From positions 128,001-192,000 of the forward strand of contig CAVSBT010000037.1 of the NCBI GenBank assembly GCA_963726245.1: a DNA stretch of 64,000 nt, read 5' to 3'. This stretch comes from an uncultured Chloroflexia bacterium. GTDB taxonomy: Bacteria; Chloroflexota; Dehalococcoidia; DSTF01; JALHUB01. Positions 25,535 through 62,679 of the stretch are shown piece by piece. The translations under genes and the position numbers were made by a program. Below the pieces are notes generated by a model, which saw only the letters and a program-made list of their open reading frames with translations, was not told the DNA's origin and did no database searches. Every line of letters begins with the position of its first letter. Position 1 is the stretch's first letter.

Positions 25535-26236
25535 CTAGATGCGCTCGGCGCGGACGACGAGGCGGTGGCTGTATTGGTGGATGTCTCGGTTGAACGTGCC
25601 GGTGCAGGTTATGAGGGTGACGGTGTCTTTGCTGGTGGGACCGACGATCTCGTTGATGGGGGCGTCGTCGCTGGCATAGGCGACGTTACTCACCACCAGG
25701 TACTGGTAGGAGGTGCCGTCGGCGAGGTCCACCTCGACCAGGTCGCCGGGGCCCAACTCCTTCAGGTGCCAGAAGACAGCGGGGCCGACGCTGGCGAAGT
25801 CCACGTGGCCGGAAAAGACGGCGTTGCTGCCCGCGCCCGGTCGGGCCGTGAAGTCGTACCAGCCCACATCAAAGGCCGACCTCGGCGACTGCATGGCGCC
25901 CTGGTCGTCCACTCCCAGCGTCACGACCGGCGCGTCGACCCCGATCTTGGGGATGACCAGTCGGGTCAAGGGAGCGCTGCTGGGCGGCGTCGCGGCGGGC
26001 GGCGTCTCGGCCAGTTGCCGCAGTCGCTGCTTGTCCAGGCTGAAGCCGGTCGAGGTAGTGGCGTCGCTGAGGGACGGGCCGGAAGTCGGCTCGGGGATGG
26101 AGCCGTCGGTGCCACTGCCCACGACTCCCGAGAAGGCCATCCCCAGGAGCACGAAGGCGGCCAGGATCAGGGCAACGCCGGCGCCCATGAGCCAGCGGTG
26201 CAGGTTCCGGTTACGATTGGCGTAGGAGCGACCCAT
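25535..26236 (-). CDS. class F sortase
   Basis: N-terminal TM; RLVIPKIGVDAPV, VGWY..PG..NAVFSGHVD, TLITC...RLVVRA (His/Cys/Arg triad). Confidence 0.92.
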   Translation of the reverse strand: MGRSYANRNRNLHRWLMGAGVALILAAFVLLGMAFSGVVGSGTDGSIPEPTSGPSLSDATTSTGFSLDKQRLRQLAETPPAATPPSSAPLTRLVIPKIGVDAPVVTLGVDDQGAMQSPRSAFDVGWYDFTARPGAGSNAVFSGHVDFASVGPAVFWHLKELGPGDLVEVDLADGTSYQYLVVSNVAYASDDAPINEIVGPTSKDTVTLITCTGTFNRDIHQYSHRLVVRAERI

Positions 26237-26688
26237 GCGCTTCTAGCCCTCGAAACCACTAACGGTACTTCATTATACGTTATTACGTCCGATTATGGGT
26301 TCGGGACTCGTTGGGCGGCAGTCGCCCCGCGACGTAGGGACAGAGCTTCCCCGCCGAAGGCGGGTCCGCCTCTGGCAGAAGCTCCGTCCGCAAGGCAGTT
26401 GTAGGGGGCAGACGGAGCGTGCCCCAGAAGGCCAGCCTGAAGCCTGGCACCGGTGGCTCGAGCCGGCCTCAAGGCAGGCCTTCAGAGGAATGGATAGCGG
26501 CCGGGCCTCCGCGACACCCGATCACGCCAAATAGGGAACTTCTTGCTCCCGCCCAGCGTTAACCATTTGGGGCCGCGCCGCGTTCTTATTGTAGAGCGGC
26601 CCTACCGGGCTCCGGCCCGGTTTGTACGGCCGTTCATCGGTGTGTCCCGGCCCGCCATAGGCGGGAGCGCCGCGGGGCCGCCGCAGTA

Positions 26689-26718
26689 TTGACAAGGGAC
26701 GCCTGCTGTACTAAAGAT
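26689..26718 (+). promoter_or_regulatory. sigma70-like promoter (TTGACA-N17-TAAAGA), duplicated at ~28638
   Basis: Perfect -35; near-identical promoter and ~95-nt leader before both paralogs. Confidence 0.6.
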
Positions 26719-26815
26719 AGGCGCGGTGGCGGGAGTAGGTCCGCCTGAGGCGGAAAGGCGCAAAGCGGACGTAGCGTAGTTCACTAGCCCGTCAGGGCAA
26801 GGAGGGCCAAGCCTC

Positions 26816-28437
26816 ATGCGCGTTCCAGGGCAGCAGAGAAAGTCTTACATGTGGAGGTGGACGGCAGCGCTCGCGGGGTTGGCCGTCCTTGGTTTTGCGC
26901 TGGTGATGGCGGTGGTGGTCACGCCGGCCAGCAGCGTCCAGGCTGCCACCTTTACCGTGAACAGCGTTGCTGACACCGGCGACGCCGACGCTCGCCGACG
27001 CCAAGTGCGACGTCAACCTAGCGTACATCGGGCAACCAGTGCACCCTGCGTGCAGCCATCGAGCAGGCCAACAACCGACTCCGGCGGTTGGCCAACACCA
27101 TCACCTTCAGCTCGGCACCGGCACTCAACCATCACTCCCGGTGGGCGCCTATGACGCCCTCGGTGACGACGGCCTCACCATCAATGGGGAGCGGGACCAT
27201 CGTCATCAAAGGCGCTTCCTGCCATGCTGGAGGTCGACGCCGACAACGTCACCATCTCGCACCTGATCCTGAACGGCGACGCCGCCGGCGCAAACGGCAT
27301 CGTGGTGCGCGCCACCAACGACAGCTACCCACCTCACCGGCGTCGAGGTCAGGAAGTACACCGGGACGGGCATCGTCTTCAACGGCAACAACGACGACTT
27401 CGTCCTGGATACCGTCAATGTCCACGACAACACCGGCGACCGGCATAGACCTGGCCGCTGGTTCTGACGACGGCATCATCCGCAACAGCACCATCGAGGA
27501 CAACGGCGGCGGCGGGATCTACCTGAACGACGGCTCGGGCAACCAGATCCTCAACAACACCATCCAGGATAACGGCACTGGGCCGACACGACGACAACGG
27601 CATCGAGGCCACAGACCAGAGCGAGTTGACGCATCCTGGGCAACACCCATCAGCGACAACTACGACGACGCGATCCGGATCGAAGGCGCCGGCACCGGCC
27701 TGGTCACGATCAACAACAACAGCATCCACGTCGGCCAGGGTGGCATCGACCTCGAGGACGACTGCCACTGCGACGACGTCCATATCAGCGGCGATACCGC
27801 CATCCGAGTCCAACTGCTTCAGCGGCTCCCTGACCGCCGACGTCGAGTTCTACCTGGCAGAACGAAAGCGGCGACGACATCGAGGCCCAGTACAACTACT
27901 GGGCCGGCGACACGGACCCCAAAGACAAGATATGTGCCATCGGACCAGAACAACGTCTAATTGCGACGCGAGGCGGCGGTACCGCAGACGGCGACGTCGA
28001 CTGGAGCCCGGTGGCAAGCTCGTGCGCCGGTGGCCACGCGTCACACCCACGCCTACCACCGCCACGGGTAGCATCACACCCAGCTTGACGCCCACGTGAC
28101 GGGCACGCCGCCCACGTCGACGCCCACAGTGACGGGCACGCCGCCTACATCCACGCCCACGCCCACGAGCGCCATGGAGTCGGTGACGCTGGCGGGCGGC
28201 ACCTGCAACCCGGTGGCCAGCACCTACGCGGACGGCACGCCCATCGCCACCATCGCGGCAGGCGTCTCACCGTCGGGCATCCTCATCTCCATCTGGTGGT
28301 ACAACACCGGTTCGGGAACCTGGCTCGGCTACTCGGCCCAGTTCCCCGACCAGAGCGACTTGAGCAGCGTGGACCGCCTGGAGGCGATATTCATCTGCGT
28401 CAGCTCCGCAGGCACCTGGAGCCGGCCTATAATCTGA
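26816..28437 (+). CDS. secreted CSLREA-domain / parallel beta-helix protein with Pro-Thr linker and GCNP-type C-terminal domain (multiple frameshifts)
   Basis: Signal peptide VQA|ATFTVN, CTLRAAIEQAN, N/D/G-rich repeats, C-terminus ESVTLAGGTCNPV...SRPII. Confidence 0.8.
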
Positions 28438-33151: not shown

Positions 33152-33472
33152 GGGGCATCTGGGCCGGACCTCAGCAACAAGGACAAGTTCGGGGCGGCCA
33201 TACGGCCGCCCCGATTGATTCTCAGGGAAAGTGAGCGGCGCGGCTTTGGGCCCGGCTTACCTGCAAGGCGTGAAAAGACGACGCTGCTCAGGCCACTGCA
33301 ATGTGCTGGTACGTGTGTTCGCGTACGTCCGCCGCTGCCAGAAGCACAAGCAGGTTGTGTCGCATTTCGTCGCGTCCTGTCGCATCCAGGCGACGCGACC
33401 GTCCGAGACCCAGCTTGCAGCGGACTCGGCGTCGGGTTCGGACCCTGTCAGTGGTAGCTCCTGGCGATGCCG

Positions 33473-33871: not shown

Positions 33872-33872
33872 A

Positions 33873-36710: not shown

Positions 36711-36929
36711 GTGTCAACACCTAGGTTGACGCCTCGGGTAGCGCTGAAAGAGTGGCGGCGGCTGCGTGCCCTGTCACAAGAGGAACTGGCAAGGGCAGCG
36801 GGCATTCAACGCAGCACCATCGTGGACATCGAGAGCGGAAAGCGGTCTCCTCGGCCGAGCACGCTGAGAAGACTCGCGAAGGCGCTGAACATCAAGCCCG
36901 AGGGGCTCTTTGCGGATCCATTCGCGTAG
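36711..36929 (+). CDS. XRE-family HTH transcriptional regulator
   Basis: LSQEELARAAGIQRSTIVDIESGKRSPRPSTLRRLAKAL. Confidence 0.9.
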   Translation: MSTPRLTPRVALKEWRRLRALSQEELARAAGIQRSTIVDIESGKRSPRPSTLRRLAKALNIKPEGLFADPFA

Positions 36930-37745
36930 CAGAGGGGGGTGCCGGGCCACGTTTGCAGGTGCGAGGTCTGCGCTTCCGGCTGAATCCCGCTCCTGCCAAC
37001 GGAAGGCGCCCCGGCGTTCTGCCGAGGCCATCCATACTCGCCGGAAGGTAGGATCGGGCTTAGCCGCCTCTTCTAGCATGGGGCCGTACATGCGCTCAGC
37101 ACGCACGAAGCGCCGGTCGCTGTACTCATGGCCGTCCCAGGAACCGCCGCAGGTGACAAGGGTGACGGCATCATGACCGTTGATGCCGAAAACCTGGTCC
37201 CAGTTGATCTCATCCACCGGAGACTCCTGGTTCCAGACGACGGCATAGTAGTAGACGGTCTGGTCCGCCAGCCGCACTTCCACCTCGTCACCGGGCTTCA
37301 GCTGGTCCAGGTCCCAGAACACAGCCGGGCCGTAGTGGATATAGTCCACGTGGCCGGATAAGATGGCATTCCCTCCAAACCCAACTCGGTGCTCCTCCCC
37401 GGGATGGTACTCAGACATATCGTACACGGCGACAACTTCCGGGCCGCTGGGCATGGGCATGACCCCGTCGGTGTCCACGGTGTGCGGCTCCAGGGCAGCG
37501 TTAACGTCTATCTTGGGGATCAACAGCCTTTCAGGAGCAGCCCCGCTTGGCGGAACGGGGCTTTCCGTGGGCCAGGGAACAGCTGTCGCCGTCGGTTCAG
37601 TTACCAGCTGCCGCTGCGGCTTCTCTCCTCCTCGAAAGACACCCTGCGTTGAGACCACAACCAGGGCCGCACCCAGCAGCGCCGAAGCCAAAGGGGCCGC
37701 CAACAGCGGCAGTCTCCTCGACAGCGTTAGCTTCCATATCCGCAT
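36774..37745 (-). CDS. class F sortase (second copy; C-terminal ~90 aa extension doubtful)
   Basis: N-terminal TM, RLLIPKIDV, NAILSGHVDY, TLVTCGG...RRFVRAER. Confidence 0.9.
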   Translation of the reverse strand: MRIWKLTLSRRLPLLAAPLASALLGAALVVVSTQGVFRGGEKPQRQLVTEPTATAVPWPTESPVPPSGAAPERLLIPKIDVNAALEPHTVDTDGVMPMPSGPEVVAVYDMSEYHPGEEHRVGFGGNAILSGHVDYIHYGPAVFWDLDQLKPGDEVEVRLADQTVYYYAVVWNQESPVDEINWDQVFGINGHDAVTLVTCGGSWDGHEYSDRRFVRAERMYGPMLEEAAKPDPTFRRVWMASAERRGAFRWQERDSAGSADLAPANVARHPPLLREWIRKEPLGLDVQRLRESSQRARPRRPLSALDVHDGAALNARCPCQFLL

Positions 37746-37900: not shown

Positions 37901-38527
37901 TCAGACCCTCTCTGCCTTAGGCAGAGACGCCTCTCCTAGTGGCGTATACCGACGGTAGGCCGACACACCCGCCGTGCCCAGCAGTAGCAGTCCAAGCCCA
38001 GCGGCCATGTAGACCCACCAGGCCGTCCCGCTGCCACCGTCCAGGTAACCGCCCGTGCCCGTTATGACCCTAGGCGTTGGCGTTACCGGCGCCGGCGTGG
38101 AGGGCGGCGCCACCGTGGGCTGCACGGCCTGGCCGCCCAGGTCCAGCGACGTGAACTTGCCGCTGCTCCAGGTAGCGCTACCCGCCGGGTTGCCTCCGAC
38201 CATGAAGCTTACCGAGGCGCCCTCGGTGCCACACCCGGCCGTCTGTCCGCTTGCCACCACGTCCAGGACGTACGACGAGTCCGCCTTCACGGTCGTCTGG
38301 CCACAGACGGTATCGCCGATCGTGGCGCTGACCTGAGTTCCTGCCGCGGCCGCCGACCCGCCCTGGGTTACCTTGCCGAAGAAGCGGTTCGGCGGCGTCG
38401 GCGGCTGGGCGCTGACGCTCGCCACCAACAGCGACGAGATCACCGCCACAACTACGCCTGCCAGCACGCCCTTTTTCAGGGTCTTCCAGTCAAGAATCAT
38501 AGTATTGAATCCCTCCGTTGATTCCAT
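37901..38527 (-). CDS. small secreted protein with putative sortase sorting signal (VITGTGG-TM-RR)
   Basis: Signal peptide VSA|QPPTPPNRFFG, two Cys, PT linker, VITGTGG + hydrophobic helix + RR; directly upstream of the sortase. Confidence 0.75.
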   Translation of the reverse strand: MESTEGFNTMILDWKTLKKGVLAGVVVAVISSLLVASVSAQPPTPPNRFFGKVTQGGSAAAAGTQVSATIGDTVCGQTTVKADSSYVLDVVASGQTAGCGTEGASVSFMVGGNPAGSATWSSGKFTSLDLGGQAVQPTVAPPSTPAPVTPTPRVITGTGGYLDGGSGTAWWVYMAAGLGLLLLGTAGVSAYRRYTPLGEASLPKAERV

Positions 38528-38562: not shown

Positions 38563-40457
38563 CTAGATCTTCGGCCGGCTAATGGTGCCGGGCGCATTCA
38601 TGCAAACGAAGATCGCGTCCAACTGGTTGACAGTCGTCAGGTCGCTGGCCTCCGGAGCCGCAGCCGAGAACCCCTGCCAGGTGCCCGACTCGGGGTCGAA
38701 CACCCAGACGGCGTCCAGCGCTTCGGGCGGCGCTACTCCCTTCGCCACCGTTTCGATTGGGGTGGCGTCGGGCCATGTCGCGGCCAGCGGGTTGCAGCCC
38801 GCCACCAGCTTCACCGATTCGCTCTCTGAAGGTCTCCAGCTTGACCACGCCAACGGCGACCACGTTGGGATGGCGGTCAAGGCGGCAGGTCAGCGTGAGC
38901 GTCCCTCCCTCCATCACCGCCTTCCCTGTGGGCACGATCTTTACCATAACATGCCCGGCAGGTCGCCAGCCAGGCCGCCCGTGGTGCCCGTCTGGGGCCA
39001 GATTATGAGGCCGCTTTGCACCGGATCCAGCGAGCACGAGACAGTCTCGTTGGCCATGGGCCGGAAGGACGAGTCGAGCGCCACAAACTTGAACTCGCCC
39101 CCTTCGGGACCTATGGCACCTCCAGGGGGCAGCTCCAGATACGTCCCCAGCAGCGGCTCACCGACGAAGGTGGCGTTGATGGTGCGCGGCGGAGACTGAC
39201 GCCGCCGCCCTGCTGAGCGGTGATGGTGGCCGTGCCGACGTCACCGTTGCCCAGCAGGAAGGTCGTGACGACGCCGTTGCGCCAGCCGTCGGCGTCACAG
39301 CCGCCCTTGAACGTAATCCCGCCATTGGGCTACCAGTCGGCCTTTCGCGAAAGCCACTGGAACCAGTAGTACAGGGCGTCCACGTCGAAGACGTTCACCG
39401 ACTTGCCCTGGCCCACAGTCAGTGGCCACGATGGGTGGGAAAAGATACTCCAGCGCCTGCCGCTAGATTGCTCGCGCCATTCTTGAGCGCCTGAGCGACG
39501 GGGCTCATAGAGAAAATCCCGAGATCGGTCTCAAAGCTGACGTAGTCGTCGAAGAGCGCTGCCGTGTTCCCGCCGCACCAGACATCCGGCAAGTCCAGGT
39601 CTGGGAGGCCCGTGCGGGATTGATGTCGAGCTGCTGGTGTTGCTCCCGTAGCCCTCAGCCGGCGGCCCGACGTCACCGTAGACGCTCGCCGTAGAGACCG
39701 TCATACATGTCGTCCAGGCCCTGCGCGCCGTCCTGATCCGGGTCAATCAGCGCCTGCTCGGTACTCGGCACAAGGGGAGCGCGACCGGTAACGTCGCAGT
39801 GGTAGGCCACGAGCAAAGGCTGCTCCTGGGCAGCCGTGCCGAGCGGCCCTGTGGGCCCAAAGGCCAGTATCGTGTCCACCACGACGATCTGCACCGAGCG
39901 CGCGTCGCCCGTCTCGTCCGTAGCCGTGACCAGGACGATCTCGTTCACGCCCTTTGTGTTGCCCAGCGTGGCCGCCGCGGCGTTAACGCGCACCGTCACC
40001 ACGCCCACAGCGGCATCCATGTCGGCGCCGCTGTTGTCCGACACCGTCAGCGTGTGATCGCCGTCGGCGTCGAAGGTGAGCGCCGGCGGCCCGCTGTTCT
40101 GCGGGTACAGCCTCGTCCATCTCGAAGGTGATGGCGCCGTATGGCTCCGGGTGCGTTCGCGGTTCATACAGCGTGCTCCCATCCACGTCAGGGCAGGGGC
40201 CAGTGTCGACCGGGAGCGCCTGGCGCGAAGCAGAACACTGCCACGATGCCCGGCTGCCCGGTGCCGATGATCGCCGGGATAGCCTGGTTGTTCAGTCCCG
40301 GCACAGCCGGTGCCGCCGATGGCAGCGCCGCAATACCGCCCGGGGCGCCCAGGCTGGCCTCTGCGCGCTGGGTGTGTCCCGCCGGGTGCAGGATTCCCAG
40401 CACCACCATGAGCGCCGCCACCAGGGCGATCACTCCTACTTTTCTGACATTACCCAT
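38563..40457 (-). CDS. large secreted S-layer-like protein with GCNP-type CTD (many frameshifts)
   Basis: Paralog of 41359..43243 (LGAPGGIAALPSAAPAVPGL, DVWCGGNT, DGWRNGVVTT); ends ESVKLVAGCNPL...SRPKI. Confidence 0.72.
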
Positions 40458-47619: not shown

Positions 47620-48249
47620 TCAACCTGCGCAGGTCACCGAAGCGTCCTTGACCTCGGTGGCGATGGTGAAGCCCTGGTACGCCAGCAACGTACTTCCGGA
47701 CACAGTTTCGGACGGCGTTAGCAAGTGGATGGTGCTGGTCCCCTGTCCCACGCAATGGAAGGTGAGCCTGTTAAGCGGCCCCTGGAAACTGGTGTTACCC
47801 TGGACGCGGGCACAGCCTGTGAACATCGTATTCTCCATCACCGTTGGGGTCGCGCAGAGGTTCAGCTCCTCCGGCATCAGATGCACCTGGGAATCATAGG
47901 CCAGCACGGCCGGGTCCCACTGCGCATTGAACTGGTAGCCCTGGTAGCCGGGTCCTGCGTTCAGCACCACGACGTCTACCTCGAACGGGGTCGGGCCCGT
48001 CACCGTCCGGCTAGCCTCGATCCCTCCCCCGGCGACGACGTCCACCCCCATCGCCGCCTCGTAGACCGCCGGTGTCGGAGGGAACGTGGGAGTCCGAATC
48101 ACGGCGGCGCCGGTGCCTTCTGGAACCCCGCCACCGGTTGGCGTCGGCCCAAGTGCCGGCTGCTCCCCACCACCGCACGCCCCCAGCGCGACAGCGAGCA
48201 ACGACAGCCCCGCCAGTGCCCACCAGCCGTTCAAGGTGAGCTTCTTCAC
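47620..48249 (-). CDS. lipoprotein with cohesin-like domain
   Basis: LGAC lipobox; AMGVDV...YQGYQFNAQWDPAVL...LTFHCVGQGTSTIHL...DASVTC. Confidence 0.75.
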   Translation of the reverse strand: MKKLTLNGWWALAGLSLLAVALGACGGGEQPALGPTPTGGGVPEGTGAAVIRTPTFPPTPAVYEAAMGVDVVAGGGIEASRTVTGPTPFEVDVVVLNAGPGYQGYQFNAQWDPAVLAYDSQVHLMPEELNLCATPTVMENTMFTGCARVQGNTSFQGPLNRLTFHCVGQGTSTIHLLTPSETVSGSTLLAYQGFTIATEVKDASVTCAG

Positions 48250-48273: not shown

Positions 48274-49268
48274 CTACACCAGCGGTCGCACGAAGGTGCC
48301 CGGGGCGTTGACGCACAAGAATACCACGTCCAGGAACCGCGCTGTCGCCAGGTCGCTGGCCTCGGGATACTGAGGAGCGTAGCCTCGCCAGAGGCCTGCG
48401 TCGAACGCCCACATCGCCCCCAGGATGTCCGCCGGCGAGATGGCGGCGGCCAGCGTCTGCACCGTGGTGCCGTCCGGGTAGGTGACTGTGACGGGATTGC
48501 AGACGGCGGCAAGATCCACCGTGTCCGCCTGGTCCGGCGGCGGAGTCGGCGCTGGTGTAGGCGTCGGCCCCGCTGGCACCGGCGTTGCCGTGGGGCCCGC
48601 CGGCACCGGCGTTGCCGTAGGCTCCGCTGGCACGGGCGTCTCCGTGGCCCCCCCTCTACCGTCGGCGTCGGCGTGGCTTCCTGCGCGCACGACGGCGGTG
48701 GCGGCGAGCCGCCGCCTATGGCAATGGAGTCGTTCACCACGTCCGAGGGGATAGCGCCACCGAGAGAGTTCGCGAGGCTCCAGTGGAAGATGCAGAGCGA
48801 GCTGCTGCCGTTGGCCAGGGCCGTGAACTGGATGAATGACAGCGGGCCGGAACCGCTCGGAGGCTGTGGCTGTTCTCCGCTGGTCAGGCATGCGAACCAG
48901 ACCGTGCCGTCCGGGATGGGGACGTCTATTGTGGTGTCGCCGTTCTGGTCGATCCCCGGCGGCTGGCTAAGCACACAGCTCGGCGTCCGCCCGGTGCCGC
49001 CCAGGAACGAGCCATCTGTGACGCTGTCGAGGCGTAGCAGCCCGGGGTCGTAGGAAAGACGCCACTCGTAGGCGCCCAGGTTCGTCACGTCCTGAACGTC
49101 GATCCTGACCACGACGGAATCGCCCACCGACGCCGTGTGGGGCGAGACCACCTGCACCGTGGCCGACTGCCCCAGGGCCGATCCGCCCATCGAGGCGAGG
49201 GCGGCCAGCCCCACGCCAATTGCAGCAGCGATAGACCAGGCTAATGATTTCCGCACCCGCAAACTCAT
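48274..49268 (-). CDS. secreted cohesin-domain protein + PT linker + GCNP-type CTD (frameshift ~48650)
   Basis: VGDSVVVRIDVQDVTNLGAYEWRLSYDPGLL...GSGPLSFIQF; ends DTVDLAAVCNPV...VRPLV. Confidence 0.8.
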
Positions 49269-53413: not shown

Positions 53414-54887
53414 CTAGGATCCCGTGCATGAATGGCCTGACTGGGACAGCACCATCAGCACATCGGCCATCGAGATCGCCCCATCGGGAGCGCCCGACGT
53501 GGGCGGGGCCGCCGTGCGGTCGTAGCGACGACCGACCTTGTCTAGACTATTCAGCACTGTGTCCCCGTTCCAGTCCCCGTCCTTTAGGCTGTCATAGGAT
53601 ACGCCGTTGCCGTTGGGCGGCCCGCCGCTAGAGGCGCCGGAGTAGAACAGCACGGCGAGCACATCGCTTATGTCTACGCTCCGGTCCCTGGGGCCGCTGG
53701 GGCTCGGATCCTTGTTGGCAGGCACAGGCACGGAGTAGAAGTCCCAGGGGTTCGTCCAGTCGCGGTTCCCGCCCAGAGTGATGTCGTCGCGGGCCTCCTC
53801 CACGTCGCTACAGCCGTCGCGGTCGCTGTCGCCGGTCGCCAGCCCCAGGCTCTTTATGGTGAGGCTGCCGTCCAACGGCGTGAATGGGATCTGGGTGGGG
53901 ACGGAGTCGGATCTGAGGAGGCACGTCTTCTGATACTCCGGCGCGGAGCAATCGTTTAACAGCACCAGGGCTGTGGAGCCCGCCGCTACGGGGCCGAAGG
54001 TCACCGTCGCCAGTATTCCGGTCCCCGTCGGGCCCAGATGTGTAGAGCCCAAGGTCAGGCACTCGAAGTTCACGGTCCCGCTTCCGTAGACCGCTGCCAG
54101 GCAGCTCAGGCTGCGGCCGGTGCTTCCCAGGAAGCCGCCGTCCTGAATGCCCAGCGGCGTTACCACGGCCGGGTCATAGGACACCGTCACTTCATAGGCC
54201 CCGAGCTCATCCCCGCTCTGCAGCCCCACCACCACCACATTGATCCGAGTGGTATTGACGCCGAACGCGTGGTCGATGTTGGGGGAGGTGGCAGCCCAGG
54301 TGCCGGCGCCGGAGTCGTACACGCTGGCGGCGCCGTCGGCATAGCCGGGGCTGGACTGGTCGGCGCCCCAGACGTAGTAGCTGTAATCGAGCGCCCCCGA
54401 ATCTCTTGACCACCAGGTGGTACTGGGTGCCGCCCGTCAGTTGGGGCGGCGTCGTGAAGGTGAAGGTGATGAACCTGAAATCGTTGGAGCTGAGACTGCT
54501 CGCGGCCACCGTGTTGCTGGTGCCGTTGGCCACCAGTGTACCGGGAACGCCGCCCGAGTCGGTCCGGATCTCCACCGTCAGGTTGTCGGTAGGCACCCCG
54601 ACCTTCTTGAGCCACAAGCTGGCCCGGACAGCCCTGGTGCTGGCCGGGAGCTTGAAGCCCTGTGCCCGCCGGGCGCTGGCTGCCGTGTCGCCCACGTTTA
54701 GGTTGAAGACGTCTACGTTGTTGGCGCCGTAGTAGGCGGCTTCCGAAGGCGCCACCTTGGGCGACGGGTCAAACTTGATGTTATAGACGTTCGCCGCCAG
54801 GGCTGGCGTATCGGAGCCCACAACCAGCGCCGCCGCCAGGACAGCGACAAAGAAGCTACCGCGACTGAACCAAGCTACCCAGCGCAA
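53414..54887 (-). CDS. secreted protein: choice-of-anchor-R-like domain + cohesin + dockerin/flexitail-like module (frameshift ~54390)
   Basis: AQGFKL...LWLKKVG.PTDNLTVEIRTDSGGVPG; LGAYEVTVSYDPAVV; GDSDRDGCSDVEE...NPWDFYSVP...GHSC. Confidence 0.75.
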
Positions 54888-55169: not shown

Positions 55170-57773
55170 TTACGGGTCCATAGGCGGCTGAGCCGGGTAG
55201 GGGTTCGTGCAGGTGCTGCCGGCACGACCGAAGACGAACTGCAGGTCCTTCACGTCGATGTCGTTGTCAGGCGGGTAAGGCTGCAGGTCGTTGCACGTCG
55301 TGTACCACAGGCTGCCCAAGTGGCTCCCGTACCGCCAGGCCTGCGCCTGCTCGTCGAGCAGGTCGACCTTGCAGTCGTGGTTCAGGTCACCCTCGAGGTA
55401 GCGAATGGTGAGCTTGGTGCTCGTGCAGTACTTCAGGTCACCACCAGGCAGTGTCCCCGCCATGGGGTCGCCCAGGGTGTCCGACCACTGGCAAGCCGAG
55501 TCCTTCAGCCAAGTCACCACACCGTTCTCGAAGCCCGGGCACATATCGATGTACAGGTTTGGTTGCGGCTTGACAGCGATGGTGGCCAGCGTGAAGGGAC
55601 CCATGCCCAACGGGCCGGCCAGGTCCAGCGCCCAAGGGGGCGCGAGGCTTATGCAGGCCCAGTGGATGATGTTCTCCCCGATGATGCTCGGAGCGCAACT
55701 GACAGACCGCCCCGTGCTGCCCAGCCAGCCAGAGTCAGTGATGACCGGTATCTGCAGCACACTCAGGTCGTACTCGAGGTTGAACTCGTAGGCGCCTAGA
55801 CCATCGGTAGGCTCAACAGCGCCGGTCATCGGGTCAACGTCTTCTGGATCGTTGGCGACGTTGCGGGCGATCTCGCTGATCAGGATGCTGCCCTGGCCCG
55901 GGCCCGTGCAGGCCGGCGGCGCCGCGTCGCAGAGCCAGAGATTCGCCATGGCCGGGTCCTTCATCATCTGGGCGTCGGCCGACCGGACGAACACATCGAC
56001 GCTGTCGCTGAGCGTCGCGCCGTGGTCGGTCCAGCCGTCGATGGCCGTGTTGACCACATGCTGGTTGACCAGGGTCGGGGCGAACGTGGCGTCGTACTTG
56101 ATCCAAGCCGTCTCGCCGGGCGCCATGTCGACGGCGCCAGGCAGCGCGGGGTCGTTGTCGATGTCGGCGGCCCCGATGTTCGTGCACGCGATCGGCCCAT
56201 TGACCGCCGTGGTGCAGGACCCTACGTTGGCGCTCTTCGTCAGGCTGCTGGCAACGTAGGTTATGTTGCCAGTGTCAAGGTCGTCGCTCACCTGGACGCC
56301 CGTCGCCGGCGAGGCGCTGGCACCGTTCGTCAGGGTGATCATGTAGTGGACCGTGGCACCGGCCACGCTCTCTGCGCTGTCCACATAGCCCGCACCAACG
56401 TCCACCTTCTTGTCGACGGCGACGTTGGCGGCGGTCGTGGTGGTGACCTCACAGCCTATGCTGGCCGGATAGACATGGCCCACACCCGGACCCGGTATCA
56501 CGGTCGGAGGTCCGGCAGGGTACGGAACAGTCGGGCAATCCGCCTCATTGGTCTGCAAGGGGTCCACCGTGGGATTAGGCTCGCCGAAGGTAGAGCCCGT
56601 CGCGGCTCCACCAACGTTGAAGTCGTTCTTGCCAGCGTCCGCGATGGGCACCTTGACGCTGAGCCTGAGTGTCACAATCCCGCCCGCCGGGATGCTGTCC
56701 ACCAGCCCAATGCCAAGGCCACCGCCCTGGAGGAACGGGTTCTCAACGACGCAGATAACGAAGTTGTGGAACGTGGGCGGATGGTTGGGCCAGTTCGGGT
56801 TGAGGAATGTCCCAAGGTAGCCCGGCATACAGGTGCCGGCGGCTATGTCACCGGGGTCGGTGAGGACACCGTTACCGTTGAGGTCAACGTCCACCGCACC
56901 CGGTATGGTCAGCATCGGGTGTGGGTAGTACGCGCGCGCGGGGGCCCCCACGGTGCCCTGGATGATCTTGTTCACCGCGTTGCTGGTCTCCTCGTCTAGC
57001 GCGTTGGGCAGTTCGTCGAACATCGACATGCCCCTGGACGCGTTCGGCCCGTTGTTCGTGGCGACGATCTTGTAGTTCACGATGCCGCCGGCGAGCACAG
57101 GGTCAGACCCCGTGTCCGTCTTCACCGAAGACCAGTCAGCCATATTTAAGCAGGTGATCGTGGCGTCCGCCAGGTCCGTGCCGATGGTGAGGCCGCCCGC
57201 AGCCAGGGTGGTGCTGAAGGGCGGTGTACTGGCGTCCGCCGAGGTCGTCAGGTGCATGGTATAGACGCCAGGAGCGTCGCACGAGAACCTACCGACGACC
57301 GCCACGCCCGTGGTCGTGCTCGCCGCGCCTAATGTGGCGGACCCACCCAAGAGGCGGGTACCCACCGGGGTCACGACGGCGTTTGCGGTAGTGCCGCCCA
57401 GCCCGGTGTAGTGCCAGCTCTCGAGGATGCCGTCGAGCGGATCACTGTAGTCATCCGTGGGGATGAACGTCAGGCCGATGTGGTCGACGTCCAGGTTGTA
57501 GCCCTTCCAGGCTGTACCGGCGGTCGTGATGTTAAAGTTGACATCGAACGGCGCGCCCACCGCCTTGGTGGCCGCAATCTGGACACCAGCCGTCACTGTG
57601 TCGGCGTCTACCGCCATGGCGTTGGGGTTAGCAGCCTGGGTCGGCGTCGCCGAGCGGCTAAACGTCGCCATGAAGACTATTGCCAGCGCCGTAAAGGCTA
57701 GCAGAGCCCATTTTGTTCCCTTTAGGGATCCGATTGACATTTGAACCTCCCACTGAGCTTGGTTTGGGACCAA
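55170..57773 (-). CDS. large secreted protein: cohesin-like, 2x DUF11-like, cohesin, C-terminal dockerin
   Basis: NAMAVDAD...; VKTDTGSDPVLAGGIVNYKIVATNNGP (DUF11); GLGAYEFNLEYD; EGDLNHDCKVDLLD...DLQP..PDNDIDVKDLQ duplicated Ca-binding loop. Confidence 0.8.
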   Translation of the reverse strand: MVPNQAQWEVQMSIGSLKGTKWALLAFTALAIVFMATFSRSATPTQAANPNAMAVDADTVTAGVQIAATKAVGAPFDVNFNITTAGTAWKGYNLDVDHIGLTFIPTDDYSDPLDGILESWHYTGLGGTTANAVVTPVGTRLLGGSATLGAASTTTGVAVVGRFSCDAPGVYTMHLTTSADASTPPFSTTLAAGGLTIGTDLADATITCLNMADWSSVKTDTGSDPVLAGGIVNYKIVATNNGPNASRGMSMFDELPNALDEETSNAVNKIIQGTVGAPARAYYPHPMLTIPGAVDVDLNGNGVLTDPGDIAAGTCMPGYLGTFLNPNWPNHPPTFHNFVICVVENPFLQGGGLGIGLVDSIPAGGIVTLRLSVKVPIADAGKNDFNVGGAATGSTFGEPNPTVDPLQTNEADCPTVPYPAGPPTVIPGPGVGHVYPASIGCEVTTTTAANVAVDKKVDVGAGYVDSAESVAGATVHYMITLTNGASASPATGVQVSDDLDTGNITYVASSLTKSANVGSCTTAVNGPIACTNIGAADIDNDPALPGAVDMAPGETAWIKYDATFAPTLVNQHVVNTAIDGWTDHGATLSDSVDVFVRSADAQMMKDPAMANLWLCDAAPPACTGPGQGSILISEIARNVANDPEDVDPMTGAVEPTDGLGAYEFNLEYDLSVLQIPVITDSGWLGSTGRSVSCAPSIIGENIIHWACISLAPPWALDLAGPLGMGPFTLATIAVKPQPNLYIDMCPGFENGVVTWLKDSACQWSDTLGDPMAGTLPGGDLKYCTSTKLTIRYLEGDLNHDCKVDLLDEQAQAWRYGSHLGSLWYTTCNDLQPYPPDNDIDVKDLQFVFGRAGSTCTNPYPAQPPMDP

Positions 57774-57983: not shown

Positions 57984-60731
57984 TTACTTCACCCCCTTGG
58001 TGCCGCAGTTCTTACCGGACCAGGCCAGGGCTCCCAGCACGTCGCTGATGTCGATGGAACCGTTGGGCGGGCCGGGCGTGACGCCGGGCGTGCGGTCGTA
58101 GTCCCTGCCGTCGAGTATGCCGTCGCTGTTCTTGTCGACATCGTAGGCCACGCCGTTGCCGTTGACCGGCCCGAGGTGGTTGGCGCCCGAGTAGTAGAGG
58201 ACGGCCAATACATCGGCGATGCTGACGGCGCCGCTGCGGGTGCCGTTGGGGCCGACGATGTCCTTGTAGGCCGGCACCGGCACGTTGTAGTGGGCGTACC
58301 ACTGGGTCGGGTCGAGACCCAAAGCGATCATTTCGGCGTCGGTGCAGTAGCCATCACCGCTGGTGTTGAAGGCGCCGGGCACTATGGTGTAGGCGCCTGC
58401 GACCGGCATGCTAGGAGTCCAGGCCGAGCCGGTGAGGACAGTGCCCGTGTTAGAGGTGATGGCCATCGAGCTGCCGCCCATCTTCCCAATGAACCCGGCC
58501 CAGGCGTTGGTAGTCCAGGATTTGCTGCCATCGGTGAGGGTCGTAGCTGTCACACCGGTTGCCGTGCCGCTGTCAATCGTCGGCGGCGTAGCCAGAGCGA
58601 TCGGGTTGACACCCGTGGCGATGCTGGTGACGTCGCTGACGGTGTCGCCGTTGCAGTCACCGGGCAAGGACGGAAGGCCCGGCGTGGAGGTCTTGTCGAG
58701 GGCGTCGGTGCCGAGGAAGGTCTCACAGCCGTTGCTGGCGAGATCGCCGTCCGTGTCCTTGGTGTCGAAGTAGTCGAAGAAGGTCTTACCAGCGGCAGCC
58801 GGGGCAGCGGAGGTGAACCCGTCCCAGAAGTCCGGTCCGCCATCGTTGTTCGAGTCCCTGTAACCGGAGAGGCGGGCGCTGGCCAGGGCCGGGTTGGCGT
58901 AGGGCGTGGTGGTGGCATTCGTCGCCTCCGGCGCCAGGCAGTACTTCATGAAGGGGTCGCCGGCCTCGGCCTTGGGCACCGTGCTGCCGACGAAAAAGCG
59001 GTTGTTGCAGATGTTGGAGTTGTCCACGTACCCGTTGGTCGCCAGCTTGGGTGGGGGCGTCTTGTACCCCTGGCCGTTGCCCGGGATGGTGGGCTCCGGG
59101 TCACAGCTGTCGCCCAGGCCGTCGCCGTCCGTGTCAAGCTGGACGTTGGCATCCGCAAGCAGGCCGTTTTTCACGAGGGGGCAGTTGTCGACGAAGTTCA
59201 GGTAGCCGTCGCAGTCCCGGTCCTGGAACTTCGAGAAGGGCGGGACGTTCCGGTTCCCGGCCGCGCCGCTAACGCAGTTATCTTGAAGGTCGGATGTCGG
59301 GGTCTCGTGGTCGGGGTCGCACACCCCCGTCAAGGTGTCGCCGTCGGTGTCGTCGGCCGCCGTACCGGTAGTGTCCACGTTACAGCGGTCGTCGCCGCCC
59401 ATGGTGCCCTTGGTGCCCCCGGGGATGGTGTCGCCGTCGACGTCCGGGGCCGTGGACTTCTGGAGCGCGTAGTCCCAGGGGCCGGTATTGCTCCCGCCGA
59501 CGACCGTGCGCACCACCTCCGGCACGAACCCGGGCAGCGTCGCGGTCCCAGGGCTGGGGTTAGCGAGGGTGTCGGGATACGTGGGGACGGAGGTGACGCC
59601 CTGGATGAACACCGGCACGGCATAGTAGGGCGGGCAGGTTTTCACCGTGGTGGTCAGAATGTTGAAATTCGGGTCGTTCGAGGCTACGGACGGCCAGGTT
59701 GGATACTGGACCGTGATCAGCTCGAAGTACCTGTTCTCTCCCACAGGCTGCATGCTGAAGACGAGGAAGTTGACGTCCACGTCGTTGCTAGTGGCCGCAA
59801 CGATCGGTATGGGGGCGATGCCGAAGAAGCGGCTGACCAGAGTAGCCTGCGGCGGCAGGCCCAGCGCGTTGACGATGGACGGGATGGGCATTGGCAGCTG
59901 GGTCACGCCCCTAGGCGCGCACTTCGGTTGCCCGGCGACGCCACAGCCCGCCGGGTATACGGGGGAGCCGTTCTGCCCGTTGCTCGGCTCCTGGCTCTCA
60001 AACGGCGTCGTAGCGTCAAGATTCACAACGTCAACAAGGCCGCTGAGGGTGCCGTTGACCATGGTGGTGTCGTCCTTGACGGCGTTCCACAACTCGAGGT
60101 CAGCGCTAAAGAGCACGTTGGCCTCTTGTCCGAGGGGCACGAGGTTGCGGTCGCAGGCGAGTGGCTGGCCGTTGACGGTGGGGTCGATGCCGACGTTATA
60201 GTCATCGATGTTGTTGGCCGGTATCACTATACCCAGGTTAAGCCCTGAAGAGACCTGGAAAGTGATTGCCCCCGCCCTGGCGCCCAGGATGGCAGGGTGG
60301 TTGGCCACCAGGCCGGCCACCGGGTCGGGAATGGTATCGCCGGTGACGTCGGCTGGCACGGCAGCCAGGGGGCCGGTGCTCCAGGTGGCGTTGCTCAGGT
60401 CGAAGTAGGCCTGGGTGGCCTCCTTCCAGCCTGCCGCGTTGCCTTCTTGCTGCAACCAGAAGTTGGCGTAGATGTCAGGGCACTCACCCGGCCGAATCAC
60501 GTCGTCCGGGTTGTTGCTGGTGCAGAGAGCCGGCAGCACCGGTGCCAAGGTGTGCTTCATGTACACGTCCCAGCTCATGGTGCTGGGGTCGGCTGACACG
60601 GTAGTAGCCGTTCGGTTTCCCAGGGCCAGGAAGAGGGCCACCAAGACCATTGCTCCCAGTCCCATCAAAATAGCATTGCGCTTCATAAACGCATCCTCCA
60701 TCAACTTCGTTACAAAAGAGTCGGGCTGCAC
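57984..60731 (-). CDS. large secreted protein with thrombospondin type-3-like repeats and C-terminal flexitail/dockerin-like module (likely start 60686)
   Basis: Signal peptide; DRDCDGYLNFVDNCPLVKN...QLDTDGDGLGDSCD; VSIADVLAVLYYSG...GPPNGSIDISDVLGALAWSGKNC. Confidence 0.8.
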   Translation of the reverse strand: MQPDSFVTKLMEDAFMKRNAILMGLGAMVLVALFLALGNRTATTVSADPSTMSWDVYMKHTLAPVLPALCTSNNPDDVIRPGECPDIYANFWLQQEGNAAGWKEATQAYFDLSNATWSTGPLAAVPADVTGDTIPDPVAGLVANHPAILGARAGAITFQVSSGLNLGIVIPANNIDDYNVGIDPTVNGQPLACDRNLVPLGQEANVLFSADLELWNAVKDDTTMVNGTLSGLVDVVNLDATTPFESQEPSNGQNGSPVYPAGCGVAGQPKCAPRGVTQLPMPIPSIVNALGLPPQATLVSRFFGIAPIPIVAATSNDVDVNFLVFSMQPVGENRYFELITVQYPTWPSVASNDPNFNILTTTVKTCPPYYAVPVFIQGVTSVPTYPDTLANPSPGTATLPGFVPEVVRTVVGGSNTGPWDYALQKSTAPDVDGDTIPGGTKGTMGGDDRCNVDTTGTAADDTDGDTLTGVCDPDHETPTSDLQDNCVSGAAGNRNVPPFSKFQDRDCDGYLNFVDNCPLVKNGLLADANVQLDTDGDGLGDSCDPEPTIPGNGQGYKTPPPKLATNGYVDNSNICNNRFFVGSTVPKAEAGDPFMKYCLAPEATNATTTPYANPALASARLSGYRDSNNDGGPDFWDGFTSAAPAAAGKTFFDYFDTKDTDGDLASNGCETFLGTDALDKTSTPGLPSLPGDCNGDTVSDVTSIATGVNPIALATPPTIDSGTATGVTATTLTDGSKSWTTNAWAGFIGKMGGSSMAITSNTGTVLTGSAWTPSMPVAGAYTIVPGAFNTSGDGYCTDAEMIALGLDPTQWYAHYNVPVPAYKDIVGPNGTRSGAVSIADVLAVLYYSGANHLGPVNGNGVAYDVDKNSDGILDGRDYDRTPGVTPGPPNGSIDISDVLGALAWSGKNCGTKGVK

Positions 60732-60988: not shown

Positions 60989-61017
60989 GGTTTAGCACTT
61001 TGTGAGAGTTTTGTCAA
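60989..61017 (-). promoter_or_regulatory. sigma70-like promoter (TTGACA-N17-TAAACC with extended TG) for the minus-strand surface-protein genes
   Basis: Reverse strand ttgaca-aaactctcacaaagtgc-taaacc in an AT-rich divergent intergenic region. Confidence 0.5.
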
Positions 61018-61163
61018 GCCCCTGGGGTGGAATTTTAATTCACGAATTCAATAACGTCTTCTGGCCCGTCTGTCACGCCAGCCGCGCCGCTGGTGGCGTC
61101 AAACCCCGCCACGGGGGCTGGACGCAGCGACTGCCAGTAAGTTAGAGTGGCGAAGTCGGAGGC

Positions 61164-62033
61164 TTGGGCCCAATGCCGGTACCAACCACGGTGCTGAGGA
61201 CACGCCGCCTGCTGCTGGGCGTACTGCTTCTAGCCGGTCTGGCCTTCGCCGCTGCCTGCGGCAACGAGAACGCTGCCAAGCCGACCGCATCCGCCGTCGG
61301 CACGCGGCCAGCCCAGGGCACTTCCTCGCCCGCTGCCGCATCCACTCTGGGGACCCCCGTCCCCTTCACCGGCCCCCCCACCGGCATCGGCGCCGACGTG
61401 TCGGCGAACCTGTTCCAGAATGGCAGTTTCGAGTCCGGCCCCGACCCCTGGATCTCCCTCACCTGGTCCGCGGCCTGGGGCACACCCTTCAGCGTCACCT
61501 CCGAGAAGGCCCACAGCGGCAAGCAGAGCGCATCCCTAGAGCTGCGGGCGACATCCGAAGATATCGGCGCTAAGGTCTTCGGCGTCGTCCAGGAGGTGAG
61601 CCCGCTGGCACAGTTCCCGGAGGTCATCTCCGGCTACTACCGGGTGGAGAACTGGGTTCGCGGCGCCCCCAAGCAATACCTCCAGTTTGTGATCATCGCC
61701 TTCGGGGCCAACAACCTGCCCGGAGGGCACCCTAACCACCAGATTCGCTACGTCCTGGCCGGCGTGTCCCAGCCCCCGCTCGAAATCAGCAACGCCAAGT
61801 ACATCTTCTTGAGCGGGGAAGACCCTCCTACCGACAAGTGGGTCTACTTCGAGGTGCCCGTCAGCAAGGATTTCACGGAGCAATGGGGCGACATCCCGAA
61901 AGGCTACCAGATGCTCCGCCTCCTCTTTGAGGTCCGCTACGATGACAAGCCTACTGGCGCCGAGGCTCAAGCCAATGCTTACTACGACGATCTGTACATG
62001 GGCCCTGCCCAGGGTAACCCCAACCGGCCTTAG
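61164..62033 (+). CDS. lipoprotein with CBM/galactose-binding-like jelly-roll domain
   Basis: FAAAC lipobox; NLFQNGSFESG...AHSGKQSA...YYDDLYM. Confidence 0.65.
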   Translation: MGPMPVPTTVLRTRRLLLGVLLLAGLAFAAACGNENAAKPTASAVGTRPAQGTSSPAAASTLGTPVPFTGPPTGIGADVSANLFQNGSFESGPDPWISLTWSAAWGTPFSVTSEKAHSGKQSASLELRATSEDIGAKVFGVVQEVSPLAQFPEVISGYYRVENWVRGAPKQYLQFVIIAFGANNLPGGHPNHQIRYVLAGVSQPPLEISNAKYIFLSGEDPPTDKWVYFEVPVSKDFTEQWGDIPKGYQMLRLLFEVRYDDKPTGAEAQANAYYDDLYMGPAQGNPNRP

Positions 62034-62040
62034 AGAGACG

Positions 62041-62679
62041 ATGGCGGTGGGACGACACATACCACAGTGGCACCCCTGGATACTGCTGGCGGCAGCCCTG
62101 GCGGCGATGACGGCCATGTCCCTGGCGGGCGCCCAGGTTACTCAGGTTACTATCGTCCGCTCAGAAGTGCCGGCGGCCCCTGTGAGCACAAACGACACAG
62201 TCACCGTCCCCATCGTCATCGATAGCGTGACGAACCTGGGCGCTTTCGATTTTCAGGTGAGCTTCGACCCGGCGATCCTCAAGGCGGAGAAGGTGGAGAC
62301 CGGCCCCTTCCTGGGCAGCAGCGGCCGCGAGGTCAACTGCCCTAAGTCCAGCATCGATGAAGGGTCGGTGCGCCTGACCTGTGTGACTTTGGGAGCCACG
62401 CCGGCCGGTCCCACCGGCTCCGGTGTGCTGGCCACACTCGTATTCAAGCCGGTCGCCAGCGGGACCAGCCCCCTCCGGTTCGAGCAGTTGACTCTCACCG
62501 ACCCTCCTGGCACGAGCATGCCCGCCCAGGGGCAAGACTCCTCTCTCACTGTGGTGCCCGGCGCTGACAGTGGCTTCGCGTGGGCCCTCTGGGGGCCTGT
62601 TATCGGCGTCGGCGTCCTGGCCCTGGGTGCAGCCGCGGTTTGGGTGGCCTGGCGGGCTCGCCGGTCCCGCCGAGCGTAG
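62041..62679 (+). CDS. cohesin-domain protein with C-terminal TM anchor
   Basis: TVTVPIVIDSVTNLGAFDFQVSFDPAIL...GSGVLATLVFK..ASGTSPL; C-terminal helix + RARRSRR. Confidence 0.82.
   Translation: MAVGRHIPQWHPWILLAAALAAMTAMSLAGAQVTQVTIVRSEVPAAPVSTNDTVTVPIVIDSVTNLGAFDFQVSFDPAILKAEKVETGPFLGSSGREVNCPKSSIDEGSVRLTCVTLGATPAGPTGSGVLATLVFKPVASGTSPLRFEQLTLTDPPGTSMPAQGQDSSLTVVPGADSGFAWALWGPVIGVGVLALGAAAVWVAWRARRSRRA

Follow-up and report, generated by a model that had tools for sequence, protein, structure and literature searches.

A candidate surface display locus of cohesins, plug-like tails and an uncatalogued domain in an uncultured Dehalococcoidia bacterium

Introduction

To our knowledge, what is understood of protein assembly through cohesins and dockerins comes almost entirely from cellulose-degrading Firmicutes. 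The stretch of DNA analyzed here raises the question of what such modules are for when they accumulate in a locus without recognizable cellulose-degrading enzymes. The stretch, referred to as the window, covers 64,000 nucleotides (bases 128001-192000, GC content about 66%) of a 203.5 kb contig (CAVSBT010000037.1) in a metagenome-assembled genome (MAG; GCA_963726245.1, here G000) of an uncultured Chloroflexota bacterium of the Dehalococcoidia. From 25.5 kb onwards, it codes for about 20 secreted "socket and plug" proteins in a locus for which 22 genes were counted. The reading that we favor, to which we give roughly even odds (0.5), is a lineage-specific surface display system that would follow the logic of a cellulosome in peptidoglycan-containing Dehalococcoidia, with cargo other than carbohydrate-active enzymes (CAZymes).

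Sequences and searches

The source MAG has a size of 2.68 Mb in 46 contigs and is 82.8% complete with 6.3% contamination. Frames with a high GC content at third codon positions were translated, and one copy of each recurring module was cut out and searched against the window with tblastn. The Pfam scan (E <= 0.01) was run on 189 frames that overlap 25.3-64 kb and extend for 100 codons or more from stop to stop. Thirteen related loci were compared, the relatives' records being titled Dehalococcoidia MAGs. Distribution was assessed in 81 genomes sampled evenly from the order, G000 among them; one unpublished genome (G037) contributes to the totals only. Because relatedness makes these genomes non-independent, the resulting counts are descriptive.

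Cohesin modules of two classes

Ten cohesin-like modules were mapped in the window, six of a divergent 158-aa type (CohA) and four of the Pfam type (CohB), together with five plug-like tails (four flexitails and one short dockerin-like tail) and eight copies of a 78-aa domain termed GCNP. These numbers agree in every case with those of a preceding reading of the translated DNA without database searches (the sequence-only reading). That reading had also noticed no recognizable glycoside hydrolases, and indeed no glycoside hydrolase family was matched by any of the 189 frames. The Pfam matches consisted of two sortases, beta-helix fragments, an extracytoplasmic function (ECF) sigma factor, a DUF5667 anti-sigma protein, three cohesins, DUF11, SWIM/HNH frames and an rve transposase, to which the NCBIfam scan added the flexitail family NF041520, a choice-of-anchor R domain and the class F sortase model.

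The gathering score of the Pfam Cohesin family (PF00963, 24.1) was passed by two of the four CohB modules with 31.0 and 40.3 bits, while a third reached 21.1 bits and the fourth had no Pfam match; all four align with one another. A profile of nine CohB copies matched the type II cohesin dyad of A. cellulolyticus (3l8q) in the PDB with an E of 2.7e-11. CohA had no Pfam match even at E <= 10 and hence falls outside PF00963 by sequence. Its profile aligned with that of CohB with a probability of 92% in hhalign, and the sole PDB sequence matches of the CohA profile were cohesins (E 0.007). CohA carries two conserved Cys residues. The 326-aa CohA+GCNP protein (46627..47607), which has about 20 full-length homologues, was modeled with AlphaFold2 (AF2) from 28 sequences at a mean predicted local distance difference test (pLDDT) score of 74, with values of 85-93 for the CohA domain. 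All 12 Foldseek matches of this model at E <= 1e-3 were cohesins, as were the 17 best rows in VIA (Z 12.0 to 9.8), among which 2vo8 ranked first (Z 12.0, root-mean-square deviation 2.7 over 127 residues) and 2xdh reached Z 10.6. CohB was likewise modeled by AF2 at a pLDDT of 85-93. Both classes are thus predicted by these models to have the nine-stranded jelly-roll fold of cohesins, and the assignment of both to the cohesins made in the sequence-only reading held (Pfam and 3l8q for CohB, profile alignment and modeled fold for CohA). Cellulosomal structures matched by the window cohesins were 3l8q, 2zf9 and 4ums.

The genes carrying cohesins or plug-like tails are the following:

46627..47607 (-): CohA (47026-47496), linker and GCNP (46630-46863, -); 326 aa, intact
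47620..48249 (-): lipoprotein (lipobox L-G-A-C) with one divergent CohA-type cohesin (47629-48054; CohA match with 26% identity, E 1e-7)
48274..49268 (-): CohB (48717-49133; Pfam Cohesin 31.0 bits), proline/threonine-rich (PT) linker and GCNP (48277-48510, -); one frame switch, intact orthologues in loci L006 and L007
49593..51350 (-): two CohA modules (49971-50474 and 50724-51152) and a C-terminal "CTD2" of about 100 aa
51636..53324 (-): CohA (53058-53186, partial, frame-broken), flexitail and second flexitail (51737-51952 and 52166-52591; E 1.9e-27, 2 stretches); at least four frame switches, end at about 51636
53414..54887 (-): choice-of-anchor R domain, CohB (53966-54259) and flexitail (53426-53833); one frame switch, caused by an additional base near 54395; orthologues (464-556 aa) unbroken
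55170..57773 (-): CohA (57150-57623), DUF11 repeats (E 2.1e-9) and CohB (55566-55799) fused to the short dockerin-like tail (55173-55400); 867 aa, intact
57984..60731 (-): secreted protein of 915 aa whose large N-terminal region has no family, with TSP3-like Ca-binding motifs (weak MtsC/TSP3-type match, NCBIfam) and flexitail (58005-58346)
62041..62679 (+): membrane-anchored single CohB (62137-62556; Pfam Cohesin 40.3 bits) with an N-terminal hydrophobic segment, a C-terminal transmembrane (TM) helix and an RRSRR tail

The adaptor architectures proposed from the translations, in which a cohesin is combined with a tail, were confirmed, and the corresponding orthologues are unbroken. The CTD2 region (49593-49940, minus strand), with Cys residues near both ends, recurs behind a flexitail in protein P0086 and within a protein of genome G036 (locus L045, described below).

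Plug-like tails

The flexitails belong to NCBIfam family NF041520 (96.1 and 77.9 bits against a curated cut-off of 40); the four window tails and ten places in the whole genome match this family, nine of the ten above the cut-off. They were found behind unrelated passengers with YVTN, RCC1, DUF11, RHS and M28 domains, and a PDB profile search with the flexitail gave nothing at E <= 10. No function is given in the NF041520 entry, and in the accessible literature the word flexitail is used only for an unrelated antibody tag.

The short tail at 55173-55400 had no Pfam match at E <= 10. Against a set of 23 canonical dockerins taken from five genomes within the order, it aligned in hhalign with a probability of 80.6% (E 1.3e-5, 57 of 65 columns), and the segment GDLNHDCKVDLLD within it reads as a full canonical D-x-N-x-D...D loop. 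Three to four copies of this tail are present in each of five genomes, and it also terminates multi-cohesin open reading frames (ORFs) of 1514-1688 aa in G003, G024 and G036. These alignments make the short tail a likelier dockerin than the flexitail. Canonical Dockerin_1 was matched only once in the whole genome.

The GCNP domain

All eight GCNP copies were recovered by tblastn with E values of 1e-19 to 2e-49. In addition to the two cohesin proteins listed above, the domain is carried by six genes in the left half of the locus:

26816..28434 (+): secreted CSLREA-like/parallel beta-helix protein (Beta_helix/NosD, para_beta_helix) with GCNP (28204-28434, +); frame-broken, frames 2>1>3>1 when aligned with an unbroken orthologue of 559 aa
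28769..30388 (+): second beta-helix protein (Beta_helix) with GCNP (30158-30388, +); frame-broken, frames 2>1>3>2 relative to the orthologue in L013
30512..31936 (+): third beta-helix protein (weak Beta_helix) with GCNP (31706-31936, +); frame-broken, frames 2>3>1>2 relative to orthologues of 487-520 aa in L008
32642..33148 (+): short protein of a signal peptide, a Pro/Thr linker and GCNP alone (32918-33148, +); one frame switch
38566..40449 (-): paralogue of p41 (next line) ending in GCNP (38566-38802, -); at least three frames
41359..43288 (-): "p41", a secreted protein of no named family ending in GCNP (41362-41598, -); three frames; the orthologues in L008 and L009 measure 580-594 aa

Neither Pfam nor NCBIfam contains a match to GCNP, a PDB profile search yielded nothing beyond weak chance matches and an artefact from a repeat protein (BurrH, 0 stretches), and a look-up of the GCNP part in the ESM Atlas gave unnamed clusters only (0.93). 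A profile of the eight window copies matched 766 representative clusters at E <= 1e-3, 433 of them at E <= 1e-10. In most of the rows listed the match reaches the C-terminus, in some it is N-proximal at residues 40-120, and tandem pairs occur in G003, G008, G024 and G036. GCNP is therefore not strictly C-terminal, contrary to its earlier label of a C-terminal domain, and it probably serves as an anchor and not as a plug.

Of 150 listed proteins with GCNP, 50 were scanned against Pfam for passengers. These included Peptidase_S8, GH5, GH79-like, Peripla_BP_6, beta-helix/NosD (nine proteins), NHL/YNCE propellers, RTX, PKD, SpaA, SH3_3, Big_1 and TSP_3, while 24 of the 50 had no match. On another contig of the same genome (L017, contig C27), the frame 1309-2598 (+) encodes a signal peptide, an N-terminal GCNP, a linker and a Peptidase_M23 domain (E 1e-31). 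This GCNP copy contains one in-frame TGA, either an error or a real stop, where a conserved hydrophobic residue would precede the second Cys. The label "enzyme-free" given by the sequence-only reading is accordingly true of this stretch only, since GCNP or flexitail accompanies an M23 peptidase elsewhere in the genome and S8, GH5, GH79-like and M28 domains in homologues. The genome also contains murG and four penicillin-binding protein (PBP) transpeptidase domains, indicating that it makes peptidoglycan.

In the AF2 model described above, GCNP has a pLDDT of about 85 and consists of six strands and one short helix, with two conserved Cys residues on strands 2 and 5. The G036 protein mentioned for CTD2 (L045, G036:C3:206401-208100, frame 364-1368 on the minus strand) is 334 aa long and joins a region like that of the Small proteins described below to a CTD2-like region and GCNP, without a membrane segment; judged by its domain order, it represents a natural domain swap, with GCNP in the place where G000 has a sortase-type signal. 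GCNP is probably an envelope anchor, a reading that we prefer to that of a cohesin ligand because of its variable position, the tandem copies, its presence on the M23 hydrolase and on solute-binding proteins and the adjoining SH3_3, and because of the swap with a sortase-type signal and the fact that cohesin+GCNP is the architecture of an anchoring scaffoldin.

Sortases, Small proteins and anchors

Two sortase genes and two genes for short proteins, designated Small, belong to the same half of the locus:

25535..26236 (-): SrtF1, class F-like sortase with an N-terminal membrane anchor; Pfam Sortase 89.7 bits, class_F_sortase 120.4 bits; motifs SGHVD, TLITC and VVRAE in the translation
36774..37745 (-): SrtF2, class F-like sortase; Pfam Sortase 55.6 bits, class_F_sortase 88.3 bits; C-terminal extension of about 95 aa absent from orthologues (236-293 aa, aligning to 37062-37769 only)
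37901..38527 (-): Small 1, putative sortase substrate with a signal peptide, a two-Cys beta domain of about 95 aa, a PT stalk, TGTGGYL..SGT, a TM helix and YRR
40694..41257 (-): Small 2, its domain 85% identical to that of Small 1; weak GVDTG_CTERM match (NCBIfam, E 0.0075)

Both enzymes pass the Pfam Sortase cut-off (PF04203, 26.6 bits), and His, TLxTC and Arg motifs are visible in both translations. Of their earlier designation as class F sortases the family stands, with class F (NF033748) as the best NCBIfam sortase model for both, but since their scores for this class fall below its cut-off of 166 we refer to them as class F-like. The class F sortase of Propionibacterium (Cutibacterium) acnes recognizes LPXTG and is the only characterized member of its class, according to the accessible part of a review (PMC8225981). 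The window sortases resemble it in their best-scoring class and their His/Cys/Arg motifs, and differ in scores below the cut-off and in the adjoining putative substrate, which has TGTGGYL and not LPXTG. In all six Small orthologues, an invariant TGTGGYL..SGT is followed by the hydrophobic segment and YRR. An LPXTG-type sorting signal was not found in Small, where the hydrophobic segment and RR tail are preceded by TGTGGYL instead; by analogy, the TGTGGYL signal may work like a sorting signal. In the whole genome, this type of signal is confined to the two Small genes. A pilin role for Small was considered and rejected, as no invariant Lys exists in the six orthologues. Small adjoins SrtF2 in four genomes, and this adjacency together with their co-inheritance suggests that SrtF2 acts on Small.

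The three independent anchor types named by the sequence-only reading were all recovered in the translations: the lipobox at 47620, the hydrophobic segments at 62041 and the motif, TM helix and RR tail at 37901 and 40694. Outside the locus, a third sortase is encoded on contig C44 (G000:C44 74880 and 75282-75989, both on the minus strand) beside a protein that ends in LPVTGEG, a TM helix and RRARR, apparently a classical sortase/substrate pair judging from these motifs.

Conservation and distribution

Conservation of the locus in Dehalococcoidia MAGs, which the sequence-only reading had named as a check, was borne out, as the genes are co-located in relatives. Loci L008, L009 and L013 share the order SrtF1, beta-helix/GCNP genes on the other strand, SrtF2, Small and p41+GCNP, with SrtF1 orthologues at the same position as in the window; this order corresponds to 25.5-43.3 kb of the window minus the SWIM/HNH stretch at 33.2-36.7 kb. 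In L006 and L007, CohB+GCNP, CohA-type+GCNP and the anti-sigma gene follow in the same order as at 43.8-49.3 kb of the window, with the ECF sigma gene next in L007. The conserved sortase/GCNP gene cluster contains no cohesin. One 3 kb record (L004, CAYGYC010000506.1) titled "uncultured archaeon" contains three CohA and two GCNP copies that are 77-79% identical to the window copy; this label is probably wrong.

Within the order, GCNP was found in 6 of the 81 genomes, which span only four genera and contain 8-30 matches each, and in none of a further 250 Chloroflexota genomes with a completeness of 80% or more (E <= 1e-8). Flexitails were present in 27 of 81 genomes, with at least 50 matches in several, the CohB profile matched 59 and Dockerin_1 57. 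CohA was detected in 27 of 81 genomes at E <= 1e-5; all 11 genomes with strong CohA matches (E <= 1e-12) are flexitail-positive, an association that goes beyond the NF041520 entry. CohA was absent from the two GCNP-positive, flexitail-negative genomes. While SrtF2-like sortases occur in 77 of 81 genomes, orthologues with at least 62% identity were restricted to G000, G028, G024 and G003, and full-length Small was found in the same four and in none of the other 77. The most original part of the system is thus GCNP, a domain that is missing from the catalogues, restricted in lineage and associated with a sortase gene cluster, and that would serve as an anchor or a plug.

SLH was tried as the missing anchor of the order and rejected, with weak matches in only 2 of 81 genomes. 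In family f2, cohesins were found in 0 and Dockerin_1 in 2 of 21 genomes. ORFs with many cohesins reach up to 4574 aa (G021) in the sample of the order.

The proposed system and its alternatives

From the module identities, folds, synteny and distribution described above, we infer the binding steps, the anchoring by GCNP, the pairing of sortase and substrate and the regulation of the proposed display system. Cohesin modules of the two classes, CohB and CohA, would act as sockets that are fixed at the envelope by the lipobox (47620), by membrane helices (62041 and a four-cohesin protein beyond the window), by sortase-type C-terminal signals and by GCNP, which would bind the envelope or wall non-covalently through its approximately 80 residues and take the role that SLH has on clostridial anchoring scaffoldins. 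As plugs, the flexitail, putatively an enlarged dockerin-like tail, and the short dockerin behind some CohB modules would hang cargo or adaptors on these sockets. RCC1 propellers, TSP3-repeat proteins and DUF11 proteins are candidate cargo, while the beta-helix proteins and the p41 family would be held directly by their own GCNP. SrtF2 probably attaches the adjoining Small via its non-LPXTG signal (TGTGGYL, TM helix, RR), and the central ECF sigma/anti-sigma pair probably controls expression. Of the overall interpretation offered by the sequence-only reading, an enzyme-free network of plugs and sockets, the sockets remain and the plugs are probable, but "enzyme-free" applies only locally.

If the proposed system exists, the same building logic as in cellulosomes would now be found in uncultured Dehalococcoidia, with non-CAZyme cargo and two tail types replacing classical dockerins, and the uncatalogued GCNP family would appear to set the destination of dozens of secreted proteins, enzymes included. 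Resolving the pairings would reveal the surface content of these abundant sediment and soil bacteria, yield new orthogonal protein-docking pairs and give functions to flexitail and GCNP. With every module type, four anchor kinds, sortases and a regulator, the locus provides a compact test set.

Several observations weigh against the display system. The flexitail stayed below the Dockerin_1 (PF00404) cut-off of 22.9 bits, the best score being 14.2 bits (E 0.053) in one of the four flexitails scanned; its hhalign probability against the 23 canonical dockerins was 59% (E 9e-5) over 53 columns of the C-terminal half only, and its part of the AF2 model has a pLDDT below 50 with only two short helices on repeated D-I-S-D-V-L segments. 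The kinship of the flexitail to dockerins is thus weakly supported, and of the tails earlier described as dockerin/flexitail-like the second half of the name has a catalogued family behind it while the first remains doubtful for the flexitail. In addition, if the flexitail is a ligand of either cohesin class, the CohA and CohB proteins that bear it would be self-complementary. SH3b, LysM and SLH are non-covalent wall-targeting modules of surface proteins and of M23 hydrolases, and GCNP resembles them in being small, N- or C-terminal, at times in tandem, attached to many unrelated passengers and present on an M23 peptidase. Unlike them, it showed no sequence match to these or any other known wall-binding family in the NCBIfam, Pfam and PDB profile searches. 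Its fold lacks an assignment, as the cohesin domain filled the Foldseek and VIA lists of the 326-aa model, which does not argue for a new fold. Genome G028, finally, is left unexplained by GCNP as an anchor, since it combines 13 cohesin and 19 GCNP matches with three short tails, one weak Dockerin_1 match and no flexitail.

The last genome is the main support for the idea that GCNP is itself a plug, a beta-rich, non-dockerin ligand of CohB-type or other cohesins that displaced canonical dockerins in a few genera of this sub-lineage, so that multi-cohesin scaffolds would show GCNP-tagged proteases, hydrolases, beta-helix proteins and p41 as cargo and cohesin+GCNP proteins would polymerize head to tail into a lattice at the surface. 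It fits with this idea that at least two Dockerin_1 matches were found in 50 of 53 GCNP-negative, cohesin-positive genomes and in only one of the six GCNP-positive ones, that all six contain cohesins, and that the passengers are as varied as those of dockerins. However, four of the six hold 10-28 flexitail matches that could be used as plugs, so that the argument leans mainly on G028, a genome that is 89% complete. The domain is also N-terminal, tandem and attached to an M23 hydrolase and solute-binding proteins, its conserved cluster with the sortases lacks cohesins, and cohesin+GCNP proteins would bind themselves. The full-length AF2 model, with a predicted template modeling score of 0.52, was read as showing no confident packing of CohA on GCNP, while a complex prediction of CohB with GCNP (residues 238-326) scored 0.01 and 0.02, where the mark is 0.32, and speaks neither for nor against binding. 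Both the ligand and the lattice built from it therefore appear unlikely to us. We give still less credence to GCNP as a sorting or processing tag that, in a role like that of the C-terminal domain of the type IX secretion system, would be recognized and removed by the neighboring sortase-like enzymes. The tight conserved order with two sortases flanking GCNP genes in four genomes, the all-or-none occurrence in multiple copies (8-30 in 6 of 81 genomes) and the mostly C-terminal position would be expected of such a tag, but N-proximal and tandem copies exist, no membrane-retention segment follows the domain, and G036 and G008 have 18 and 8 copies, respectively, without an SrtF2 orthologue or Small, which also led us to reject a strict dependence of GCNP on these two genes. 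An LPPG motif before GCNP was rejected as a sortase cleavage site, being confined to the CohA+GCNP orthologues, and no conserved short cleavage motif precedes the eight window copies. Decay of the whole locus into a pseudogene cluster was considered as well, as translations and orthologue alignments required at least one frame switch in 9 of the 22 genes, a further point against a working system, and two insertions are present (SWIM/HNH at 33.2-36.7 kb and the rve transposase at 62751-63995). Set against their unbroken orthologues (487-628 aa), the three beta-helix genes alone need three switches each. Each break, though, shifts the frame by a single base and leaves the similarity on both sides unimpaired, and the orthologues are intact in four other MAGs. 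Even the housekeeping gene murG is split into two adjacent frames (G000:C15:76647-77742, minus strand; 188 and 48 bits), a further sign of single-base errors in this assembly. The alignments indicate that the frame breaks are probably consensus errors, and decay is an improbable explanation. We thus retain GCNP as a probable envelope anchor within a display system of cohesin sockets and plug-like tails.

Comparison with known systems

Well-known scaffoldins include SdbA and OlpB of C. thermocellum (cohesin and SLH), ScaE of R. flavefaciens (cohesin and sortase signal) and ScaB of A. cellulolyticus. The locus shares with cellulosome scaffoldins the cohesin fold, cohesins that stand singly or in tandem on PT-rich linkers, adaptors of a cohesin and a docking tail, separate anchoring proteins and sortase genes in the cluster. 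It differs from them in the lack of CAZyme cargo in the locus, in tails that are flexitails or a divergent short dockerin, in the rarity of SLH in the order and in its host phylum, Chloroflexota. Dockerin-bearing glycoside hydrolases on a scaffoldin, the mark of a cellulosome, were not found, as the 189 frames contain no glycoside hydrolase and the genome only the one canonical dockerin.

Peer et al. 2009 reportedly found non-cellulosomal cohesins and dockerins to be widespread. Such cohesins from C. perfringens glycoside hydrolases (2vo8, 2w1n) and from Archaeoglobus fulgidus (2xdh) rank at or near the top of the structural matches of CohA and, as here, their context is not cellulose degradation. 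They differ in occurring as single modules in enzymes or isolated proteins, whereas ten cohesins are found here within 37 kb and at least eight more in the next 11.5 kb. The accessible parts of the literature contained no paper describing cohesins of Chloroflexota or Dehalococcoidia, and co-mentions there came from metagenome or enzyme surveys; in the text of a 2025 cellulosome review, both "Chloroflex" and "archaea" are absent.

Extent of the locus and remaining genes

The remaining genes and insertions are as follows:

33200-36700 (minus-strand frames): SWIM/HNH stretch of about 3.5 kb between the last GCNP gene and SrtF2
35182-35574 (-): SWIM zinc finger frame
36035-36685 (-): HNH nuclease frame, weak IscB-type match
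43876..44523 (+): ECF sigma factor; PF04542 (Sigma70_r2) E 1.1e-15, PF04545 (r4) E 1.4e-7, TIGR02937 85.2 bits against a cut-off of 42.9
44534..45967 (+): membrane anti-sigma with extracytoplasmic DUF5667 (E 5.3e-11) and a PT-rich tail; orthologues in L006 and L007
61164..62033 (+): putative lipoprotein (lipobox A-A-A-C) without a Pfam or NCBIfam family match
62751-63995 (-): rve/Mu-type transposase with helix-turn-helix domains, an insertion beyond which the cohesin locus resumes

Identification of the ECF sigma factor is based on matches to both sigma-70 regions 2 and 4, and its neighborhood is the same in L007. The SWIM/HNH stretch is missing at the same position in L008, L009 and L013 and is for this reason probably an inserted mobile element outside the system; it may also be the source of the C-terminal extension of SrtF2. 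Beyond the transposase, the locus runs past 62.7 kb and the window to the end of the contig, where the last 11.5 kb contain seven further CohB matches, one further CohA and four to five further flexitails. One of the proteins encoded there combines four CohB modules with a membrane segment at its C-terminus, and another, of the CohB/short-tail type, finishes in LPRAGEG followed by a TM helix and an RR tail. Further module copies are present on contigs C44, C4, C21, C15 and C30 of the same genome.

On the left, the locus is delimited by the sortase at 25.5 kb, because its neighbor at 20965-23139 (-) is a housekeeping GHMP-kinase/aspartokinase/ACT fusion gene. This single 725-aa frame, in which N- and C-terminal GHMP-kinase domains (homoserine-kinase type) are combined with an aspartokinase domain and ACT domains, represents an unusual joining of two threonine-pathway kinases.

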